Source of the DNA: Neophaeotheca triangularis
Taxonomy: Eukaryota
Length of the DNA: 64,000 bases
NCBI GenBank assembly: GCA_054600435.1
Contig: BAAIJX010000009.1
Location: 248,001-312,000 of the forward strand
Direction: 5' to 3'
Position 1 is the first letter of the stretch. Every line of letters starts with the position of its first letter. Shown here in pieces: positions 1,065 through 64,000 of this stretch. The notes under the pieces were generated by a model that worked only from the letters and a program-made list of their open reading frames with translations, was not told the origin of the DNA and searched no databases. Position numbers and translations under genes: made by a program.

Positions 1065-2920
1065 ATGGAGTCTACAGGCCAAACAGCAGAGCCCATTGCC
1101 GACGGCGCATGGGCAGTAGCAAAGCAATCTTTTGGCGACCTCTTCCGCTGGAAACAACGAGTTGAGATCCGCAACGAGTACGGCGAAGTGCGCACCGAAT
1201 GGCAAGTGCCCGTACGACTGAAGAACCCCATCTCGCTCTTCGCCCAACTCTCGCCGTCGGGATGGCTCTTCTTCATCGTCGGCTTTTGCGCTTGGACGGC
1301 AGACGCTTTTGACTTCCACGCTTTGTCGATCCAGACGGTCAAGCTGGCCGCATACTACAATCAAACGAATACGGCGATTAGTACGGCGATTACTCTTACG
1401 CTTCTTTTGAGGTCCGTTGGAGCGCTTTTCTTTGGAATTGCGGGAGACCGTTTTGGTAAGATATTATCTTGTACCCGTTGGGAAAGACTCCGCTCGCTAA
1501 CACTACATACCAGGTCGGAAATACCCCATGGTTCGTCGTCTCGCCTTCGCCGTTTGTGGAAGACTTGGCGCTTACTAACCCTAAAAAAGGTTATCAACAT
1601 GTTTGTTCTTGGATTGTTACAAATTGCCACGATCTATTCGAACACTTTCCAACAGTTTCTCGCTGTGAGAGCGCTCTTCGGCCTCTTCATGGGTGGTGTT
1701 TGTAAGCTACATGTCGTCACTAATGCGGTTAAATCAACCATGCTGACTTTTGGTAGATGGAAATGCCGTAGCCATGGCCCTGGAGAACTGCCCCATCGAA
1801 GCTCGCGGTATTATGAGCGGTATTCTCCAGCAAGGCTACTCGCTGGGCTACGTCCTCGCGGCATGCGCCAACCTGGGCGTCGGTGGTGAGGTGAATACCT
1901 GGAAGACTGTTTTCTGGATTGCTGCAGGACTGTCAATCGGGGTTGGATGCGTTCGACTATTATTCCCCGAATCCAAACAATTCAGGGAGTTAAAGAAGCA
2001 AGGGCACAAAGGCCCCAATGCCAAAGAGTTCTTGAAAGAAACGAAGAGCATGCTTGCTGCCGAGTGGAAGCTGTGCGTCTACTGCATTTTTCTAATGTCC
2101 TGGTTCAACTACTACAGCCACGCCTCCGAAGACTCTTACACGACGTTCATGATCCAGCAGAAGGGTCTCAGCAACTACGATGCCAGCATCGCTTCTATTC
2201 TGTAAGTGGAGAGGGGATACGCAAGGCCAGCAAGCCTTACTGACAGTCTTCCAGAATGAAGAGCGGCGCGTGCGTTGGAGGGACCTTCTTAGGGTATATC
2301 TCGCAATGGGTCGGCCGTCGAAGAGCAATCGTTCTCGCCGCACTCTGCAGCGCCGTGTTTATCCCCGCTTGGATCCTACCCAACTCCACCGGCGCGCTTT
2401 CCGCCACCGGTTTCATAATGCAGTTCTTCGTGCAAGGAGCTTGGGGAGTGATCCCAATCCACCTCAACGAGTTGTCGCCGGCAGCATTCCGCTCTTCGTT
2501 CCCCGGCGTCACGTATCAGATGTAAGTTCTCCCTCAGTACGCACACGAACGCGAGGCGTCCGCCGAGAAGACCACATCTAACCTTATTCAAACAGCGGCA
2601 ACATGATTTCCGCCCCCGCAGCCCAAATCGTCAACGCCATTGCCGAAGGCGTGCTCCTCGATAACGCTGCTGGCGGCGAAAGGGTCCCATCTTACGGGCC
2701 AACAATGGCCGTTACCACGGCCATTATCGCGCTTGGAATTGCCATTACGACTGCTGTCGGGCCAGAGAAGCGTGGCAGTCACTTCGAGAGCGCTGTTGTC
2801 GGACAGCAGACCGCTGCTCATGCGGCAGAGGTCAAGAACGAGGATCTCGAGCTGGGAAGGGCTAAGAGTGTCGAGAGCGATGAACATGCTGAGTATAAAG
2901 AGGAAACGGGGAAGAATTAA
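1065..2920 (+). CDS. JEN1: MFS carboxylic acid/H+ symporter (Jen1-like), 6 exons
   Basis: Exons 1065-1455, 1514-1530, 1590-1701, 1757-2201, 2255-2521, 2596-2920 splice in frame through GT-AG introns. Motifs AWTADAFDFH, TLLLRSVGALFFG, GDRFGRKYPM, SGILQQGYSLGY, QGAWGVIPIHLNELSP are typical of fungal Jen1/SHS-family transporters. Confidence 0.9.
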
Positions 2921-55593: not shown

Positions 55594-57063
55594 ATGAGTG
55601 CTTCAAAGCGCCTCCGTCAGCGGCAAGAGGATGCCACCCGCGCAGCTTCTCCTCAATCCGCCAACAAACGCCTGAAAACTACCAAAGCCACTCACGTGCC
55701 AGCTGCTAAAAGCGGTCTCGACTTCCTGGTCGATGAGAATGCGAGAGACGGGAGAAAGCTGGGTGCAAAGCTCACCAATGGCGCTCCGAGAAAGAACACC
55801 ACCCAGGTGAACGAGTCGAATGCGATTGTAGCGCCCAATACTGCTCAGGTTGAAGCAAATGAGACGCAGCCCGAGGTTATAGACATTTCCAGCGGCGAGG
55901 AGGAATCAAGTGAACTTGAAGAGTCGGAGGATCACGCAGACGAGGGTGCGCAAGCTGAGGGTCCAACGTCCCAACAGAAACCCTCTATCAACGGCCATAT
56001 CTCACCAGTGTCTGATGAGCAGGAAGGCTCTGGCCACGGCGATGTTGAGATGGGTGGCATGGGCGATGATAATGGCGATACCGGAGAGGAACCTTCACTT
56101 GGCGACATGCTCTTAGCTCGACACCCCGAACCGATCAACGTTGCCGATTCCTTCCAGGATCCTTTCGCCGAATCCAAAGCCATGGTGCCTTCAGCGGGTA
56201 AAGCTCTCGCCGTTCCATCTGGCAACTCCTTAGGTACAGTGCTCACCCAGGCACTCCGAACCAACGACAAGGATCTGCTGGAAAGCTGTTTCCAGACAAA
56301 CGACAAAGCTAGCATACGAGCTACCGTACAGCGACTTCAGTCCCAGCATGTCGCAAGCCTGCTTACCAGGCTGGCAGAACGGATACACAAGCGGCCGGGC
56401 AGGACTGGCAACCTCCTTGTCTGGATACAGTGGTGCTTGGTCGCTCACGGTGGCTACCTCTCCTCCCAACCTGACGTCCTGAAACAGCTCGCGTCCCTGC
56501 AATCAGTCATTCGGGAGCGCGCAAACGGTCTTCAGCCTCTGTTGCACGTCAAAGGGAAATTGGACATGCTCAGTGCGCAGCTCGAACTTAGACGAGACTT
56601 GCACCAGTCCTCGCGCGCGTCGAACGGGGAGGAAGATGAAGATGATGCCGTCATCTATGTCGAAGGGCAGGATGACGACTGGTCGAGCAGTGAAGGAGAG
56701 GAGCGAGATGAGGAGACGAGTGCACGGGCGATTGCGCCTCCATCGACAAGCAAAAAGGGCAGGAAGCCCCCTACCTTTGTTTCCGGCAACGCTTCTGCTA
56801 GCGAGGGCAGCGATGACGAACAAATGCCGACCACCAACGGCGTCTCGCATCACGATCAAGATGAGGACTCTGGAAGCGAAGAAGAAGACCAAGATGGCAT
56901 GCTCGATGTCGAGGCCGAAGAGACCGACGACGACGATGCGGAAGAGGACTCCGAAGACGATGCAGACGACCAAGAGGCTAGCGAAGAGGAGGACATGTCC
57001 GAGGACGAGAGCGAGGAGGAAGCACAGCCTGCAAAACCTGCAAAGCTCAATCGAAAGCGATAA
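55594..57063 (+). CDS. UTP5: U3 snoRNA-associated protein Utp5 (Utp12/Dip2 C-terminal domain)
   Basis: SLGTVLTQALRTNDKDLLESC...IRATVQRL...RPGRTGNLLVWIQWCLVAHGGYL...KGKLDMLSAQ, followed by a long acidic tail. Confidence 0.85.
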   Translation: MSASKRLRQRQEDATRAASPQSANKRLKTTKATHVPAAKSGLDFLVDENARDGRKLGAKLTNGAPRKNTTQVNESNAIVAPNTAQVEANETQPEVIDISSGEEESSELEESEDHADEGAQAEGPTSQQKPSINGHISPVSDEQEGSGHGDVEMGGMGDDNGDTGEEPSLGDMLLARHPEPINVADSFQDPFAESKAMVPSAGKALAVPSGNSLGTVLTQALRTNDKDLLESCFQTNDKASIRATVQRLQSQHVASLLTRLAERIHKRPGRTGNLLVWIQWCLVAHGGYLSSQPDVLKQLASLQSVIRERANGLQPLLHVKGKLDMLSAQLELRRDLHQSSRASNGEEDEDDAVIYVEGQDDDWSSSEGEERDEETSARAIAPPSTSKKGRKPPTFVSGNASASEGSDDEQMPTTNGVSHHDQDEDSGSEEEDQDGMLDVEAEETDDDDAEEDSEDDADDQEASEEEDMSEDESEEEAQPAKPAKLNRKR

Positions 57064-57173
57064 ACCTGTCAACCGTAGGGATACCGGAGCGTGTGTGTAT
57101 ATATTGGACAGGCTTACGATGTGGGAGGGGATTTTGCACAGGAGCGAGGGTGAGTCTGCTTTCCGCAGCATTT

Positions 57174-57515
57174 TTAGCGGTAGAGGACTGTGCACAGGAA
57201 AGGATGTGCATATGATACCCAGCGTCGGCGTTCGGGAAGAAGTTGGCATAACGTTGTTTTATCAGCCTCGAGGCTATTCAGTTTTCGACACTTCATCCTG
57301 CGTGCTCGCTTCTTCGAGGTAGGCCCCTTCTTCTGCTCATCGACACTAAAGGCTCTCGAATCAAATCCTCCCCCTTTACGATACCGCGAAGATGGACTAA
57401 GCGTGAAGTACATCGCAACCATGATACTTCCAGCAAAGACAATTCGCCACAGGAGTCGGCGCCGACCGCCACGGTACGACTCGTTATATTTGGGTGCATA
57501 CGGAAACACGGCCAT
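57174..57515 (-). CDS. Putative small single-pass membrane protein
   Basis: ATG in good context (ACAATGG). Reads MAVFPYAPKYNESYRGGRRR, then hydrophobic LLWRIVFAGSIMVAMYFTL, then a basic tail. Confidence 0.35.
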   Translation of the reverse strand: MAVFPYAPKYNESYRGGRRRLLWRIVFAGSIMVAMYFTLSPSSRYRKGGGFDSRAFSVDEQKKGPTSKKRARRMKCRKLNSLEADKTTLCQLLPERRRWVSYAHPFLCTVLYR

Positions 57516-57760
57516 TGTGTCAATATGTACGAAGCAACACTTCCCTTTGTTACACTCTTTGACAACGTCCTCGAGCAACCTCATTCTTTGTCAACACAAC
57601 GAGCACAATGCATTGTGCACTTGCTTTGTATCAAACACATAAGTACTCGAGCTCGGAGTACTGCTCCATGCTCAATTCCATCTCAGCATCTTCAACTCGA
57701 GCCCAACCTGCACAGTCTTTCCTCAGCGCTTTCCTTTTCACACCAAGCAGCCAATACAAA

Positions 57761-58543
57761 ATGCCCCTCAGAAACGCCCTCCCAAGACAATACTACGCCG
57801 AGGCTGGTCCCTCTGGCTACAACACCAACAAGGCCCTGCCCCCAAAGCCCAGACGCAAGACGTTCGCTGAGCAAGCGGGCAACGACCCTAACCTTCAAGG
57901 TCTAGGCTGGCTCCTCAACGAAGACGATCGCCACCGCCCCGCCACATCTTCCTCACGCTCCACCCGCTCCACCCGCTCTACACAGCGTTCAGCACCACAG
58001 CCGCATTCCTGGCTCGACCCGCCCAGCCCGACCTACTGGCCCTCAGCCAACCCACCCCGTAAAGAATTCCACGACTGGCGCGGTGAACCACTCACCCACC
58101 CCAAGCCCACCAAGCAAAAGCACTCCAGAGGTAAGCCACTGCCCGCCGCCCCTGACAAACCCCTCCCCCCCGCGCCTTGGGACACCGACTACCCCTACAC
58201 CCGCCCCCACCAATCGGGCAGAAGCACGCACGGCCATACGCTCAAGCACAAGCAGAAATTCGACTCCCGCCCCATTGAGCTCGAGACCCGCCAACCCCGG
58301 CTCGTGCCCTACGGCAGCCAGCGCGCGAGCGAGCGCCCCCAGCCCCGACCCAAGCTCGAGCCGCTCAAGCATGGGTTCGTCAAGGGTGAGATCATCGAGA
58401 CGAGGGGCGATAGGTTGAGGGCTGCGAGTGGCAAGCGGCCGAAGACGATGCTCAAGAGTGAGTGGGAGGCGGAGAGGAGGCGCAAGGCGGAGTTGGAGAG
58501 GGCGAGGAGCCGCAAGGGCAGCGCTTGTTGCGTTGTGCAGTAA
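57761..58543 (+). CDS. Pro/Arg-rich hypothetical protein ending in a CaaX box
   Basis: ATG after CAAA, 260 codons, PxxP motifs, C-terminus RSRKGSACCVVQ then stop. Confidence 0.7.
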   Translation: MPLRNALPRQYYAEAGPSGYNTNKALPPKPRRKTFAEQAGNDPNLQGLGWLLNEDDRHRPATSSSRSTRSTRSTQRSAPQPHSWLDPPSPTYWPSANPPRKEFHDWRGEPLTHPKPTKQKHSRGKPLPAAPDKPLPPAPWDTDYPYTRPHQSGRSTHGHTLKHKQKFDSRPIELETRQPRLVPYGSQRASERPQPRPKLEPLKHGFVKGEIIETRGDRLRAASGKRPKTMLKSEWEAERRRKAELERARSRKGSACCVVQ

Positions 58544-59128
58544 GTTCGCAATTTTCCCTTTTGTTTGTCTATGGTGTGAATGTGCTTGGGTTGCTTTAGC
58601 TTGCTGTCGCGTTTGGCGTTTTGCTCTTTTTGCGGTGCTTTGGGATAGACTATCTGACTTTTTTTGCAGGCCTGGTGCTTTGCGTGGGTTCTAAAATGTA
58701 CGAGTAAGTCCAAGACAATCTTATTCCTTCTAGCCAATCGTTTCTAATCACCTCACATCAGCCAAATATCAACTGACTGGCATTTTCACCATCCTTCTCA
58801 ATATTCTGTCTCCAACATCGCGTGACGAAGCCTCGCCACCGGACATTGGCAATCGACAATGGAAGCCACCAAACCCGCAGTCTTTTCATTGTCATTCTTT
58901 GTTCTCCAGATAAAAACATCAGTACCCGCGTCCTCCGACCCTTGTCACAATAACATCATCCCCACCATTTCTTTATCCAGCCTCTTTGTCGAAACCCGCC
59001 CCCAATCTCCCCCACCTAATCATAGCATCTCCTCGCGAACCACCCCTTCCCCTCCCACCGATTACCCATGAAACGAAAAAAGATGCAACCCACCACTCCC
59101 AAGCCACCACCACCTCCGTTACCCCGCC

Positions 59129-60160
59129 ATGGACTCGCGCTCAGGCACCGAAATCATCAACCCCTTCACCGGCCGGCCTTGCCGAAGCCCAGCCGCCCAA
59201 AACCGCATCAAAAGACCCGAAACGCTCACCACAACTTCCCCCAAACCCCTCGACACCGAACTCGCCCCGCTAAGCCCGGTCTACAGCCTCGAAATCGACA
59301 GCAGCCTGCCACCAGACGGTTTGATCAGCCGGACAATGTCGCTGCGCAGACCTTCCAGCAGCGGACTCGGACTCCCGATGCCGCAAGCTAGAAGCAGCGA
59401 TCCGGTAGCCGCGGCACGGACGATAGTGCCGAGATCCCAGCCGAAGGCACCGCACAGGAGTTGCGACGAGAGGGTGAAGAAGACGAACAGAGTTTCCGGT
59501 GGCGTTTGGGACGGGGACAGTGTCCATCGCGCGCTTTCGCTACAGTCTTCACACCGCCCTCACGACCGCCACAATCACCTCCAACTCGGCCACCAACATC
59601 GGCAACGACAACACCTGCAACCCCTGGAACACGGCGACCACTCCTCTTCGCTACCGAAAAGTGGGCTCTCCGCCCTTCACACACCCTCGCGTTTTAGTTT
59701 CCAAAGCCCACGACCCGCGCCTCTACCCCCTGACCGGAATTCCTACGACCAGGTAGTTTGGAAGAGTTTGAAAAGTCCCAGAAGCGGGAGTGTGACTCGC
59801 AAGAGCCGGAGCCAGGATAGCAGCAAGCGGGTGGAAGGCAGTTCCGCGAGTGAAGAACCAGAGAAGAGAGCGGGAGAGGGGAGTCTGAGCGGGAGGGAAC
59901 CCAGCGACAGCGACAGCGACAGCAGCGACAGTAACGACGGCAGCAGCACTCGCAAAACCATCCTCGCACGCCCTGGCCAGTCAGCCCACCGCGACCGCCA
60001 TGACGCTTTCGGCCAGTTTCACAAACCCCTGCCCCCGACTCCCACAACGGGGTCCGTGACTTTGGACCTGCTGGTCGCCATGGAGGTTGATGAGAGGGAG
60101 CGGCGAATACGGGCAGAGCGCGCTGGGCAAAGGGAAAGGGGGGAGGGGGAGAAGTTTTAG
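59129..60160 (+). CDS. Ser/Arg/Pro-rich disordered hypothetical protein
   Basis: 343-aa ORF with GCCATGG start, INPFTGRP, KPLPPTP and a short helical C-terminus. Confidence 0.6.
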   Translation: MDSRSGTEIINPFTGRPCRSPAAQNRIKRPETLTTTSPKPLDTELAPLSPVYSLEIDSSLPPDGLISRTMSLRRPSSSGLGLPMPQARSSDPVAAARTIVPRSQPKAPHRSCDERVKKTNRVSGGVWDGDSVHRALSLQSSHRPHDRHNHLQLGHQHRQRQHLQPLEHGDHSSSLPKSGLSALHTPSRFSFQSPRPAPLPPDRNSYDQVVWKSLKSPRSGSVTRKSRSQDSSKRVEGSSASEEPEKRAGEGSLSGREPSDSDSDSSDSNDGSSTRKTILARPGQSAHRDRHDAFGQFHKPLPPTPTTGSVTLDLLVAMEVDERERRIRAERAGQRERGEGEKF

Positions 60161-61019
60161 AAATTCGAAACGGGCTGAGAGCTAGGGGTTGGGAAAGGAG
60201 GGGGTTACAGAAGTGTTTCTAGGACGAGGGGTACGACGGAGGTTCTTTTGCTTTCTCCGTGGCCAGAGCGATCTTGCGGCTTCTGTTTACACTTTGTAAG
60301 GTAGAGTCGCCGTAGCCGTCTTCTTTCCTTCCCTTCCCTTCTCTTTCCTTTGCTCCACTGCTGCGTAGGAAGTAAACAGCACCTTTAGGTAAAACACCAC
60401 CCCCCCCCCAGTGCCAAGGTCCAAGAGATCCCAACACAAAACCGCCTTGAACGCGGACCCTTGGATTCGCGCACCCCCTCCTCCGTTCCAGAGAGTCTAT
60501 AGCAAAAGGAGACGCTACTTTCGCGCTTTGTTTAAAAGGTGTTTGCCAGGGCTGGCACACACGTGCTCCAGCTTCGAAATCGTCAGTGGTCATGCATAAG
60601 GCTATCTCGCACTTCCCGCGTGGCTGGCAGGCTGGCAGCGAAGTGACTCGGCTCGTTCGTGGTCGCGGAAAGCGGTGGTTTTTGGGGGGAGGGGCGTGCC
60701 CGCTGTGTCTGGGAGACGGGTGGTTCGCGTTGGGGATTTGATCGGGAGAGTACAGATGCCTAGTTTTAAAGAGTAGACCGGGGCGGGTGGGATGGGAGTA
60801 GGGGGGGTTAGTGGCTGGTTGTCTGGGTGGGTTATCGTACATTCGCTAAGGGATAAGGCTACGGCTTGCAAGGGTGCGTGTTCTGAAACAGTACATCTAT
60901 CAAGCAGCAGTCAAGTGATACCGACCGAGTAGAGCTAACGAACGAGACTATGAGCTCTTCGCTTGAGATGACGACAGGCGTCTGATGTAGATTACCTAGC
61001 TTGCGTTACATTAGTTTGC

Positions 61020-62938
61020 ATCACATCACATCACATCGCCGAGAGCGAAGGGGTTGAAAGACAATCAAAGTGGGAGACTCTTCCATTGAAAAAAAAGCTG
61101 TCAAAAGAAAAGAAGCCAAGAGACATCCATCTACAATGCAGTCCAGTCCCCAGCCCTTTCCCACGGCAATGGAAAGAGAAATCTCCCACCAGAACTTCGC
61201 GACCCGAGAGAACGAAAGGAGCAAGCCGCCACAAGGTCCAGACCCCTCCTTCCATCGACATCCTCTAGAGCCCGGTGTTTTTTTGTTTTTTTTTCCCTCG
61301 AAAATCCCAAGGAGTGGGCTATCGGCGCGGACCAACTCGATACCGCGGCAAGTTGCAGAGCCCGACCGTCTCGTAGGACAAGAGACAAAAAAGAACAAAA
61401 AAGACAAAAAACATCGATTCCATCCTGGGGGAAAAATAATCAAAAAACTCCTCATGTAAACAAAAATTGTCCCAGCAGCCAAAGATATCCAAAAAAGCAT
61501 TCCTACACGCGCGATTCCGCCTGAAAGATACAGGGGAAAAGGGGAGGAATGCCCCCCCACCCGCTTTCAGAAAGAAAGGAGGCAGGATGGAAGTGAACGC
61601 AACCCCGTATCAAAAAAGGTGACAGGGATTCCGGCCAATGACTACCGCACAACAACGGCATCTCTTTCTAATCTTTCTAACCTGATGATAGTGTTGCGTT
61701 CCGCTCGATACGAACCCAGAGGATCGTAGGGGGAACGCGTAAAGAACGCTCGTTACCGGAAACGCGGCGGCGCTCTCAGCAGCTACTAGGCTTGGTTGAA
61801 GGTGTGCGTGTAGCTGATCGGCTACACGGCTTTTTTTCCGAGCCTAGCGCGCGATGCCTCCGCCGCAGTTTGTTAGAGCAAGGCCATGCCCCAGAAGCTC
61901 CCTCTCACGAAGATCGGAAAAGCGACTGATGCCACACGCCTACAATAGTGTGGCAACAAATGTCCGGCTCATGGTGGTTGGATAGTATTTCGTCGACGCA
62001 ACGGGTTTCGGGCGGTTTGCGGTTGGCTTGTCTGGGAATCGTGCGTCGCTGGTCTTTGGAGCTCTTTGCCTGGGAGCCTCGGCGTGTGCACGGCGCTGCC
62101 GGTTCGCCGCATCTTGCTCGTTCGGCTCGCTTCGGCCCTTCTTTCGCGCTTCGGCGGACTGTTCAGCGGGCAAGCCACGGCTGAGGCGTCGGCGGAAGGG
62201 GGAAAGATGGAGGCGGAAGCGAGGAAGGGGCAAGTACCGGCCTCGTCGGTAACGACGGCAACGGAGAGGCTTCGAGGGAAGAGGAAAGACAGCGGTGTCG
62301 GTTCTTTGCAAGTCTCGCAAGCGGCGAGAAGGGTGTGGGTGGGCGAAAGTTGTTCGGTTACCAGAGGAGCGGGATGGAGGGGGCGAGCGAGTGCCACGAC
62401 ATTACCAATGGAAATACAGCGCCCTGTCGAGGGACGCAAGCAATGAGCTCCGAGATCGGTGGACTGTTCGTAGCCGTTCAGCGTGCGTCCGGTCGCCGCG
62501 GTTGGGCTCCGAAGAGCCAACGGGGGAGGCCGGGTATCGAGGAAGGCCAGATATGTCCAACGCTCATCTCATCGAGGTAGGTCGACAAGGGGTTTCGCAA
62601 ACGCGAGCAAAAATAACAAGTGTTAAACAGGTGCAGAGCACAACGCAAGAACGCTCGCAACAGAACGCAGTTTTGGGGTATTCCTTCGTTTTGCGCAAAT
62701 ACCGGCGCAGAGGCGCAACGCTTGATACGTCCTCCCGGCGCGAAAGAGCTGCACGGGAGGAGGAACGAAGGAAGAGACCTGATACCGCTCGGGCTGAGCG
62801 TATTTAAAGTCTCGGTCGCAGTCGCTGTTCCACAAGCCGGGGGGATCCTGCGGGTTGACGCAGAGGGCCTCTAGCGCGCATTAGAGGCCAAAAGGTCAGG
62901 GGCAGGACTGAAGCGCAAACCATGACGAGAGCGCTTCA
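61020..62938. ncRNA. Candidate large structured RNA (or very long structured 3' UTR), identity unknown
   Basis: More than 12 nested perfect 7-10 bp helices, GNRA/UUCG-capped hairpins, a ~250-nt imperfect rod, and no credible ORF. Confidence 0.45.
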
Positions 62939-64000
62939 ACGGCTGGGATCAGCAAAGGGATTCGATGGTCCGTGAGGATTAGTGGATGGAGGGTTGGTAC
63001 TGATATTGGGAGTTTTAGAGCCTTGAGGGGGGGATGTTGGTGAAGTGACGGCAAAATCGCCATGGCTGGAGGCACGGACATGGGTTGGACGTCGGACGGC
63101 ATTGTCAACATACTGCCCGCTTACCGAGCCAAACTTCTCTTGGGAGGGACTAAACCCTGAGGTTGTGGTCGGAGAAGCTGGGTTGAAGTTGAATGTCGGC
63201 AGCGGGTTGGGAGTCAAAGTGTAGGCTTGTCCATTTAGTCTGTTGGCGGTATGGTCGCCGTCTTGCCTTGAACTTGTCGCTTGTTCGTAGGTTGGTGTGG
63301 CTTCTTGACTAGGCCGTGATTCGGCATTGCGCGTAGCGAAGAAAGTATCTAGTTCATGTTTCTCTTGAGCTGGGTTCCCAGGCTGTATAGGCCGAGGGCT
63401 TCTGTAAACGCCACCGCTACCACCTCTGTAAAAGATGGAGCCTGCTCTGATCAAGCCGATCAAGACGATGACGACCCAAATGAGCAGTATGCAAGAGCAG
63501 ATGATGGCTTCTTGTCGGATAGCCTTGGCGAAGTACGAAGTAACCCATAGTACAGCGTCGGAGATCTCGTCAGCAGCTCGAGCGCCGGCTCCTTCAGGGG
63601 CCAGCATCTCGTCTTGGGTGGCAGCAACCTTTTCGGCGCCCCCCAGGCTGAACGTGTCAACGGGCATGAGGGGGAAATCGATCCGAGCATTGTTACCGAC
63701 CCAAGTCAGGCCAGTCTGGATGCCTTCGATCTTTAGTAGCACCAGGCAATTGAGCACGTCCAAGATGGGCGTGTGTAGGACGGTACCACCAAAGGTCGTG
63801 TCGAGAACATCCATCATGCCGTCAACGAATACGTTGAGAGTGTCGTTGACTGCATTCGTGGTGATATTGACCCAGCCAAGGACGTCTTGGTTGATCTTGT
63901 CGCTAGTGGAACCGATCATGTCGTTGGTACCGGCAGCCCATTGTTCGCTGGCGTTATTGAGCTGGAACATGACTTTGTCCGCAAATTCGCCTACTTGGTC
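62936..64000 (-). CDS. PRM1: Plasma-membrane fusion protein Prm1 (3' part; 5' end lies beyond the window)
   Basis: LNNASEQWA...INQDVLGWVNITTNAVNDTLNVF...TFGGTVL...VLNCLVLLKIEGIQTGLTWV, TM segment EAIICSCILLIWVVIVLIGL, cytosolic tail ending in NPF. Confidence 0.88.
   Translation of the reverse strand, partial: DQVGEFADKVMFQLNNASEQWAAGTNDMIGSTSDKINQDVLGWVNITTNAVNDTLNVFVDGMMDVLDTTFGGTVLHTPILDVLNCLVLLKIEGIQTGLTWVGNNARIDFPLMPVDTFSLGGAEKVAATQDEMLAPEGAGARAADEISDAVLWVTSYFAKAIRQEAIICSCILLIWVVIVLIGLIRAGSIFYRGGSGGVYRSPRPIQPGNPAQEKHELDTFFATRNAESRPSQEATPTYEQATSSRQDGDHTANRLNGQAYTLTPNPLPTFNFNPASPTTTSGFSPSQEKFGSVSGQYVDNAVRRPTHVRASSHGDFAVTSPTSPPQGSKTPNISTNPPSTNPHGPSNPFADPSR

Follow-up and report, generated by a model that had tools for sequence, protein, structure and literature searches.

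A conserved, multi-domain structured RNA following the PRM1 stop codon, probably the 3' UTR of the PRM1 message, in Neophaeotheca triangularis and related fungi

The stretch of about 1.87 kb that follows the stop codon of PRM1 in Neophaeotheca triangularis (61069-62938 of the 64,000-nucleotide stretch of DNA analysed, here called the window) is very probably a conserved structured RNA on the PRM1 strand, which is the minus strand of the window and the one on which all features described below lie. It is delimited by RNA contigs, inverted repeats and collinearity with relatives. The fold starts at a hairpin containing the stop codon and ends about 1.87 kb downstream at a terminal hairpin, where the RNA contigs stop; in between are at least five sequence islands, several compensated helices and a long variable arm with a conserved tip. 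The reading that we favour, with modest confidence, is that this is the 3' UTR of the PRM1 mRNA in this Dothideomycete fungus, forming a single multi-domain RNA of an undescribed family that would serve as a scaffold in cis. The original prediction, made from the letters of the sequence, was of a functional, undescribed, large structured RNA, and this is supported by the RNA contigs, the collinearity, covariation in three domains and the lack of a match in Rfam; of the two forms that it offered, a structured PRM1 3' UTR is favoured over a standalone RNA by a contig bridging the stop codon and by helices specific to the sense strand.

The last 354 codons of the PRM1 coding sequence occupy 62939-64000, and the gene continues beyond the edge of the window. 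The protein search returned 575 proteins at E <= 1e-5 among 4780 candidates, the named matches being Dothideomycetes entries for "plasma membrane fusion protein prm1"; one protein (P0001) is the complete 803-aa PRM1 from the same genome. Transcription of the adjoining interval is borne out by RNA-library contigs of four studies (X1, X2, X9 and X7), which span 61069-62704, and a further X1 contig (record 5, 62794-62978) crosses the PRM1 stop codon, extending 142 nt into the UTR and 43 nt into the coding sequence. In X9, a poly(A) library, only the final 555 nt as read in PRM1 sense (61073-61627) are covered. Contig ends from three studies fall at 61069, 61073 and 61092, within 24 nt of 61069, while those on the 5' side are scattered (62523, 62677 and 62704), these being Logan contigs, which cannot show RNA ends or levels. 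There is no contig cover over 57500-61068 in any of the four runs, nor over 62705-62793 in X1; contigs for the PRM1 coding part are absent from X2, X7 and X9, and neither such holes in cover nor contig depth can rank abundance.

Related species show the same arrangement, with contigs that carry the PRM1 coding sequence plus a tail of 1.1-2.1 kb and that share their ends. In one of these species, contigs from six samples (L010-L015) terminate 2083-2117 nt past the PRM1 stop, and the starts of four of them (L010, L013, L014 and L015) cluster to within 4 nt of a site about 555 nt upstream of the ATG; the genomic contig L052 continues beyond both the start and the end points. Two contigs of the L010-L015 species end, in the sense direction, with an A or AAA that has no counterpart in the genome. 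Judged by their common ends and not by their metadata, the relatives' JGI contigs are probably transcripts.

The interval was singled out in the original prediction for its complementary pairs, and all ten of these were found where they had been placed, nine as exact reverse complements and the tenth, CTAGGCTTGG/CCGAGCCTAG, with one G.U. The region 61020-62938 holds 23 exact inverted repeats (at least 8 bp, no more than 200 nt apart) against 5.07 +/- 2.22 expected, a count reached by none of 200 dinucleotide shuffles, and 62 other tiles of 1919 nt outside the region have 0-8 each. By midpoint, all 23 lie within 61000-62999, compared with 2 repeats in 56500-60999. Folding energies also differ from those of shuffled sequence, with 150-nt sliding z-scores of -5.7, -4.3, -3.7 and -3.3 within 61750-62950; across 60100-61450 they are nowhere under -1.3.

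The interval is rich in inverted repeats and contains some ORFs of 126-183 codons, as could be the case in a relic of a transposon or foldback element, in a spacer that is palindrome-rich by chance or in a hidden protein gene; all three are now hardly credible. The interval is single-copy, with no second copy in the 64-kb window, which is as far as the check for a multi-copy transposon relic extends, and its synteny with PRM1 is kept across distant taxa, along with covariation. The earlier judgement that the gap has no credible ORF also holds. The G+C content of 60150-62700 shows no 3-base periodicity, none of ten gap ORFs matched Pfam, and no homologue of the 183-codon ORF was found among proteins of 100-321 residues. 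Between the RNA contigs and the window there are indels of 12, 5, 6, 4, 1, 1, 2 and 1 nt over 61127-62609, and none in the PRM1 coding part; a hidden protein gene was thus rejected on the frame-breaking indels among near-identical strains, together with the missing periodicity, Pfam match and homologue. Programmed readthrough of the UGA was rejected as well, since the next stop comes after 0-115 codons in 45 sequences and no frame is kept open. No tRNA or tmRNA was detected.

A metagenome scan with the PRM1 fragment alone gave 78 pattern matches and no relative; the related loci came from a second, alignment-based scan. In 21 of 44 non-redundant metagenome loci, the DNA after the PRM1 stop is collinear with the interval by nhmmer, starting 7-28 nt past the stop codon; in the other 23, which have more distant PRM1s, nhmmer found no match. 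The relatives' PRM1 proteins are only about 56-64% identical, yet shared sequence islands are 80-94% identical by blastn, and the genes farther downstream of PRM1 vary. RNAalifold over the entire 575-column alignment yielded few pairs, the variable stems being out of register there. Compensatory changes in the loci downstream of the relatives' PRM1 genes, proposed earlier as a check on function, are seen as covariation in three domains (alignments A2, A3 and A5). Several helices of the original prediction, namely TGCCACAC/GTGTGGCA, GGCCTCTA/TAGAGGCC and the terminal GTGGGAGA/TCTCCCAC, are backed by these comparative data; the 10-bp helix TTCCTTCGTT/AACGAAGGAA depends on an 18-nt insertion present in the window alone.

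Read in PRM1 sense, the fold opens with hairpin HP1 (62909-62938; stem 62938-62931 / 62916-62909), in which the UGA stop is paired with UCA at the base and the loop carries a conserved GUCAUG. The hairpin is kept in relatives though their stem sequences differ, and the TGA is invariant across the 20 sequences of alignment A2. Next come the helices GUCCU/AGGAU (62908-62904 / 62849-62845) and UGAC/GUCA (62898-62895 / 62859-62856), which together span 62845-62908 and enclose a second hairpin, HP2, GGCCUCUA/UAGAGGCC (62889-62866), again retained as a fold with differing stem sequences in the relatives listed. RNAalifold on A2 gave 9 pairs, 6 of them with both sides changed. The paired share of cells in these is 91.1%, compared with 82.5% for shuffles (0/500 as high) and 25-45% for slid controls, and the covariation score is 0.344 against 0.178 (0/500 as high); the observed number of double-change pairs was reached by 1/500 shuffles and that of further pair types by 26/500.

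Island A (62794-62813) reads GAGACUUUAAAUAnGCUCAG in the sense direction and matches a peak of conservation at 62815-62796 (mean 0.83); a related form, GAGACGUAAUUGCUCAG, is found in more distant loci. Island B (62638-62703), whose identity to relatives is 80-94% by blastn, forms a U.G-rich helix of GGUAUUUGCG (62703-62694) with UGCGUUGUGC (62647-62638), in which U.G swaps with C-G between species; alignment A5 of this island (20 sequences, RNAalifold, sense) has 12 pairs, 5 of them double-changed. Island C (62356-62425), in sense UGUAUUUCC-UUGG-UAAUGUCGYGGCACU...GCCCCAUCCAUCCCGCUCCUCUG, shows 84-94% identity across some 64 nt with relatives that have PRM1 proteins of about 58-64% identity. 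Between islands C and D lies the arm of variable length (61978-62361), whose tip, GGCUUGCCC (62176-62168), is conserved; this tip and a UGGUACU motif were read off four sequences (the window, L021, L030 and L052). On the sense strand the arm has fold z-scores of -4.23 both in the window, where 0/100 shuffles fold as well, and in L021 (0/200), of -4.49 in L030 (0/200) and of -0.24 in L052 (72/200).

Island D (61868-61977) is a four-helix junction around an invariant CCGGACA, and it contains the predicted hairpin UGCCACAC/GUGUGGCA (61955-61930). Alignment A3 of this island (18 sequences) has 17 pairs, 12 of them changed on both sides; the share of paired cells is 94.4%, compared with 81.1% for shuffles (0/500 as high) and 28-45% for slid controls, and the covariation score is 0.450 against 0.198 (0/500 as high), with the double-change pairs reached by 0/500 shuffles and the further pair types by 5/500. 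Island E (61585-61668), UGUGCGGUUGUUAUUGGG...UCCCUGUC...GGAUACGGGGUUGGUUC in sense, was defined on an nhmmer alignment of 13 sequences and shows 78% blastn identity to the L052 group. The RNA closes with the 3'-terminal hairpin (61069-61191), GUGGGAGA...UCUCCCAC enclosing UUCCAUUG/CAAUGGAA, at the RNA 3' end marked by the contig ends of three studies. A terminal GGGAG...GGCAAU...CUCCC hairpin is also present in four relatives (L017, L025, L031 and L050), in two of which (L017 and L025) it lies at or near the contig ends; its closing pair is G-C, U-A or G.U.

Being unstranded, the RNA contigs might in principle merge a pair of convergent transcripts that overlap, and one rival to be weighed is a separate non-coding RNA gene that runs along the plus strand towards PRM1 and overlaps the end of that gene. 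The window's plus strand does fold slightly better (total energy -740 against -694 kcal/mol for minus, with stronger local z-scores too); the strand-neutral stems of the window alone, read on the minus strand, have 14 G.U against 29 A.C; and the neutral helix CAGUC/GACUG has, on the sense strand, 9 A.C against 2 G.U. Other measures are even: whole-domain fold z-scores of 16 homologues (12 shuffles each) do not separate the strands, the strand-neutral stems of 20 sequences have 337 G.U against 308 A.C (each about 55-63 over shuffles), strand-neutral helices on MAFFT alignments have 20 against 18, and the hairpin of island D is strand-neutral by itself. In islands B and D, however, the helices backed by compensation are found in sense only. 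Island D gives 17 pairs on the PRM1-sense strand and 7, the hairpin only, on the antisense, and island B, in the same 20 sequences, 12 and 0; in A3 and A5, helices dependent on an exchange of G.U with G-C or A-U are found on the PRM1-sense strand only, though RNAalifold favours G.U-tolerant helices, which lends some method bias to this result. HP1, the stop-codon hairpin, folds better in sense in 17 of 19 sequences and less well in 2, with a mean difference of -2.2 kcal/mol; cover by the poly(A) library lies at what is the 3' end in PRM1 sense; and the non-templated A runs at contig ends point the same way. A plus-strand gene therefore seems very unlikely.

Fungal 3' UTRs are mostly short, and to our knowledge conserved RNA structures have seldom been described there, genome-wide screens reporting a small number; a folded, conserved tail of about 1.9 kb is very unusual for a fungal mRNA. 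Large conserved 3' UTRs occur in localised mRNAs such as bicoid and oskar of Drosophila, and zipcodes in ASH1 of yeast; oskar RNA has an additional non-coding scaffold role. Like these, the PRM1 tail is a multi-stem structure in the 3' UTR of a coding mRNA, on the mRNA strand, kept in phylogeny with compensatory changes, and PRM1 too encodes a protein required at a particular site in the cell. Unlike them, it belongs to another kingdom, has no sequence relation to them and begins at the stop codon itself; it is 2-3 times the length of the bicoid element, and the likeness in localisation rests on analogy. The original prediction pointed to localisation or control of the PRM1 message during cell fusion, and such a role may be envisaged by this analogy; that the tail regulates in cis we put somewhat above even. 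It would act as a scaffold for RNA-binding proteins, in a manner resembling the large 3' UTRs of bicoid and oskar, and the scaffold would set the fate of the message, that is, where and when it is translated; it might also maintain the stability of the mRNA though a 3' UTR of such length could invite nonsense-mediated decay.

The screen of Gao, Jones and Rivas 2021 (PMC8216456) described, in the available part of its text, covariation-backed 3' UTR structures of unknown function in fungal genes, single structures in thioredoxin, GLY1, MET13, a RING-finger gene and a thioesterase gene. Neither "PRM1" nor "membrane fusion" occurs in the accessible text of that paper or of Li and Breaker 2017 (PMC5640933). 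The PRM1 tail resembles the structures of these screens, so far as the available portions describe them, in being covariation-backed and in a 3' UTR (PMC8216456, PMC5640933), and differs from the single structures there in being a multi-domain RNA of 1.1-2.1 kb. It is notable for islands more conserved than the protein that precedes them, for covarying helices, for the stop-codon hairpin and for its defined, structured ends. It offers a testable handle on the post-transcriptional control of membrane fusion in filamentous fungi, bears on how very long 3' UTRs escape decay, and forms a family now open to modelling and to searches of named genomes, such as those of Zymoseptoria, Hortaea and other Dothideomycetes.

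A less probable but still appreciable alternative is that the PRM1 transcript is bifunctional, being also the precursor of a stable ncRNA of 1.1-2.1 kb that is cut from, or survives from, the 3' UTR and forms the core of a trans-acting RNP. The 3' part would then be transcribed together with the mRNA of a cell-fusion gene, possibly be released from it, and represent a new class of large fungal RNP RNA, with a layout like that of telomerase RNA -- conserved junctions, variable arms and conserved tips -- and, if this minority reading applies, old enough that fungi with no more than about 50% identity between their PRM1 proteins have it in common. Its size, near-invariant islands, arm with a conserved tip and structured ends are closer to those of stable RNP RNAs than to those of ordinary UTRs, and the fold sets in exactly at the stop codon and closes at the terminal hairpin. 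There is also precedent for an ncRNA processed from an mRNA: according to the accessible part of PMC9564094, the telomerase RNA of Ustilago maydis is made from the Emi1 mRNA. As far as that text allows comparison, the PRM1 tail is likewise a long fungal ncRNA candidate physically carried on a protein-coding mRNA (PMC9564094); it differs in having no telomere template, in its host gene and its phylum, and in that its release is a candidate only. Against release, the contigs, which cannot as such show RNA ends, display no discrete 5' end of a processed species, their ends there being scattered; contigs join coding sequence and tail in the window's species and in many relatives; and no known RNA family was matched. 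The 3' UTR reading is preferred, and if the tail does act on its own, it would be a large addition to the few big structured RNAs known from eukaryotes.

Telomerase RNA itself had been set aside in the original prediction because no template was seen, and indeed neither strand carries one, either in the window or in relatives. According to the available portion of PMC3592445, the telomerase RNA (TER) of Pezizomycotina is an independent RNA gene of 1.6-2.4 kb (2049 nt in N. crassa, 2425 nt in M. graminicola), that has, about 200 nt from its 3' end, a three-way junction with a P6.1 stem of 4 bp and a loop of 5 nt (NUNGN); the N. crassa template is the 9 nt UAACCCUAA, about 1.5 telomere repeats. 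To the extent that this text describes it, the PRM1 tail is like TER in measuring about 2 kb, in having conserved core domains set apart by arms that defy alignment between classes, and in its covariation-backed helices (PMC3592445), as well as in its conserved islands between variable arms and its U-rich and A-rich tracts, but it has neither the defining template, nor its own gene, nor an Rfam match. Over 61069-62935, the 6-mer permutations of CCCTAA are missing from the minus strand and represented once on the plus strand (CTAACC, 61677), and no telomere-template 7-mer lies at a conserved place on either strand in 45 sequences. Infernal with Rfam on 59800-63200 gave six matches at E 0.33-7.8, every one well short of its gathering score and the best with 23 bits against 60, in keeping with the undescribed status claimed earlier, and Rfam 15 gave no match at E <= 0.1 in eight relatives' contigs. 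The length of about 1.87 kb would fit an independent TER gene, but the first hairpin holds the PRM1 stop codon, and contigs run from the PRM1 coding sequence into the RNA without a break. A Pezizomycotina-type telomerase RNA is thus excluded for lack of a template on both strands, barring a non-canonical telomere repeat that matches a conserved island. Elsewhere in the window, TAACCCTAA occurs at position 1576, within an intron of another gene.

The minus-strand ORF ending at 62936 encodes PRM1: 575 proteins match it with E <= 1e-5, and those that carry a name are annotated "plasma membrane fusion protein prm1" in Dothideomycetes (Oleoguttula, Meristemomyces, Hortaea, Teratosphaeriaceae, Zymoseptoria and others), at 47-59% identity. 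Since the nearest relative's PRM1 is 74% identical, and the named matches only 47-59%, the source lineage is, judged by these proteins, a poorly sampled Dothideomycete. The DNA 3' of this gene is best read as the 3' UTR of the PRM1 mRNA, and as a new family of large, multi-domain structured RNA. That this gap has no credible ORF, as originally predicted, was borne out by periodicity, Pfam, homologue and indel tests. Three-base G+C periodicity is missing from the gap, in contrast to the PRM1 coding part; none of 10 gap ORFs has a Pfam match, and no homologue of the longest (183 codons) was found among proteins of 100-321 residues. Over 61127-62609, RNA contigs of near-identical strains carry indels of 12, 5, 6, 4, 1, 1, 2 and 1 nt relative to the window, with the PRM1 coding part free of indels. 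Nowhere else in the 64-kb window does any part of the gap recur.

Parts of the interval were found in 14 public runs from 7 studies, 12 of them recorded as RNA. Contigs from four runs, one from each of four studies, were placed on the window; they span 61069-62704, and run X1 additionally covers 62794-64000, with one contig (62794-62978) crossing the PRM1 stop codon. No introns were seen in the placed contigs. True contig ends from three studies lie at 61069, 61073 and 61092, and poly(A) library X9 contributes only 61073-61627, the PRM1-sense 3' end. None of the four runs has a contig on 57500-61068; this and other uncovered stretches serve as no more than a weak check on DNA carry-over and do not count as evidence. 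The start first assigned to the interval, 61020, takes in an (ATCAC)n microsatellite (61020-61037) lying directly outside the mapped RNA end (61069) and absent from the RNA contigs.

All ten of the complementary pairs originally listed are present at the positions given for them, nine as exact reverse complements and one with a single G.U. Exact inverted repeats of 8 bp or longer, with arms no more than 200 nt apart, number 23 within 61020-62938, versus 5.07 +/- 2.22 in dinucleotide shuffles (23 reached in 0 of 200) and 0-8 in equal-sized tiles elsewhere in the window; by bin, all 23 fall within 61000-62999, with 2 in the 4.5 kb leftward. Folding against shuffled controls, the check first suggested, gave sliding 150-nt z-scores of -3.3 (61751), -5.7 (62126), -4.3 (62651) and -3.7 (62801), and no fold signal at 60100-61450.

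With only the PRM1 fragment as query, a metagenome contig scan gave no relatives; an alignment of 34 PRM1 proteins gave 80 loci, many of them entire contigs of 4-5 kb in which the PRM1 reading frame is followed by 1.1-2.1 kb of further sequence. Six contigs of one species from six samples (L010-L015) end 2083-2117 nt past the stop, two of the six with a terminal A or AAA missing from the genome, while a 223-kb genomic contig of that species (L052) continues beyond those ends. Because of these ends, such contigs would be full-length transcripts with a 2.1-kb 3' UTR. Four of these presumed PRM1 transcripts, each from a different sample (L010, L013, L014 and L015), share a start site to within 4 nt, about 555 nt ahead of the ATG; the relative's 5' UTR is therefore unusually long too.

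The downstream parts were reduced to 45 non-redundant sequences, the window included. Collinear homology to the window minus strand was detected by nhmmer in 21 of the 44 relatives, beginning 7-28 nt past the stop and extending to 62362 in nearly all 21, and in several to 61880, 61640 or 61473 (L021, E 2e-48; L055, 2e-39). Islands detected by blastn have 80-94% identity at 62674-62610 and 62425-62362 and 74-82% at 61973-61884 and 61667-61595, which exceeds expectation beside a protein of ~60% identity. Nine sequences more distant still, in which the inserted hairpins are absent, also show by eye island D's invariant core, CCGGACA ... GGGUAUGRUCGCUCAYUCGCC, and at that distance the first islands are likewise present in related forms. 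The genes past the element differ between relatives, which ties the element to PRM1.

Compensatory changes were found in all three domains tested. In the stop-proximal domain (alignment A2, n=20), RNAalifold gives GUCCY/RGGAU plus UGAC/GUYA, with 6 of the 9 pairs changed on both sides; paired cells are 91.1%, versus 82.5% shuffled (reached in 0 of 500) and 25-45% with slid partners, and the covariation score is 0.344 versus 0.178. Island D (A3, n=18) has 17 pairs in four helices, 12 changed on both sides, with 94.4% paired cells versus 81.1% shuffled (0 of 500) and 28-45% slid, and a covariation score of 0.450 versus 0.198. Its hairpin in the original prediction, UGCCACAC/GUGUGGCA in the window, reads UGUCAUGC/GCAUGACA, UGCUAUGC/GCAUAGCA, UGCUGUAC/GUACAGCA and UGCCGCGC/GCGCGGCA in others. 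Island B (A5, n=20) has 12 pairs, 5 changed on both sides. The stop-codon hairpin, in which UGA pairs with UCA around a GUCAUG loop, is retained despite quite different stems, as is the predicted hairpin GGCCUCUA/UAGAGGCC. The terminal hairpin GTGGGAGA/TCTCCCAC recurs in four relatives, its closing pair being G-C, U-A or G.U, and in two (L017, L025) lies at or near the contig end. The long arm (61978-62361) is unalignable, yet folds as a long hairpin, with a z-score of -4.23 for both the window and L021 and of -4.49 for L030; L052 has -0.24. Its tip, GGCUUGCCC(C) (62168-62176, minus strand), and UGGUACU on its 5' strand occur in all four of these sequences and are candidate protein-binding sites. 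The 10-bp helix TTCCTTCGTT/AACGAAGGAA is present and perfect in the window; it is a lineage-specific extra helix, created by an 18-nt insertion (62681-62698, minus strand) carried by the window alone among 21 aligned sequences.

The RNA very probably lies on the PRM1-sense (minus) strand. RNAalifold gives island D 17 pairs in sense and only a symmetric 7-pair hairpin in antisense, and island B 12 versus 0; in the sense-only helices, U.G or G.U swaps with C-G, G-C or U-A across species. For the stop-codon hairpin, 17 of 19 sequences fold more stably in sense and the other 2 less stably (mean difference -2.2 kcal/mol); sense is preferred by 12 versus 4 for hairpin HP3 (n=22) and by 11 versus 9 for hairpin HP2 (62889-62866; n=20). 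Coding part and tail are joined in RNA contigs, the poly(A) library X9 covers the sense 3' end, and non-templated A is found at the sense 3' ends of relatives' contigs. Against this, the window's total energy is -740 kcal/mol on the plus strand versus -694 on the minus, with stronger plus-strand local z-scores. Whole-domain z-scores of 16 homologues did not separate the strands, two strand-neutral counts were even (G.U 20 versus A.C 18; 337 versus 308), and the window alone gave G.U 14 versus A.C 29. Sense is favoured because the covariation-backed sense-only helices and transcript contiguity were weighed above the other tests.

Most likely, the PRM1 3' UTR would serve as a cis-acting protein-binding scaffold that determines where the PRM1 message goes, how it is translated or how stable it is; so long a UTR may escape decay with the help of its structured 3' end and the hairpin at the stop codon. 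The main rival, which we consider rather unlikely, is that the tail would be released from the PRM1 mRNA, or persist, as a trans-acting RNP RNA; precedent exists in the Ustilago telomerase RNA, reportedly made from an mRNA (PMC9564094).

As for known RNAs, an Rfam search of the gap gave only 6 weak matches, far under gathering scores, in keeping with the element having been called undescribed; 8 relatives' contigs gave no Rfam match at E <= 0.1, and no tRNA was found in the gap. No earlier description of a PRM1-tail RNA was found within the literature covered: PRM1 and membrane fusion are not mentioned in the available text of two genome-wide fungal RNA-structure screens (PMC8216456, PMC5640933), and titles and abstracts on PRM1, UTRs, plasma membrane fusion and Neurospora describe no such element. 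Pezizomycotina telomerase RNAs are reported to be of similar size (N. crassa 2049 nt, M. graminicola 2425 nt), with the template as their defining feature (PMC3592445). Telomere-repeat permutation 6-mers within the RNA number 0 on the minus strand and 1 on the plus, and no 7-mer holds a conserved place across the 45 sequences on either strand; as predicted, this is not telomerase RNA, the template being absent from both strands in window and relatives. Two distant relatives carry the homologous motifs AACCCTAAC and AACCCTAC in antisense, ~1047-1055 (L071) and ~854 nt (L058) past the stop; chance alone predicts ~3-4 such 9-mers over all DNA scanned, and the core group has no counterpart. A perfect template-like 9-mer, TAACCCTAA (1576-1584, plus strand), lies within an MFS-type transporter gene, in a branch-site-like stretch of an intron, and appears to be a chance occurrence rather than an RNA gene.

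Beyond the RNA end, ~900 nt (60161-61068) with long G/C homopolymer-like tracts and no fold signal separate it from a plus-strand ORF stop at 60160. That ORF (59129-60160) and another at 57608-58543, both on the plus strand, proline/serine/arginine-rich and without Pfam matches, may form one intron-containing gene for a disordered protein, convergent with PRM1.
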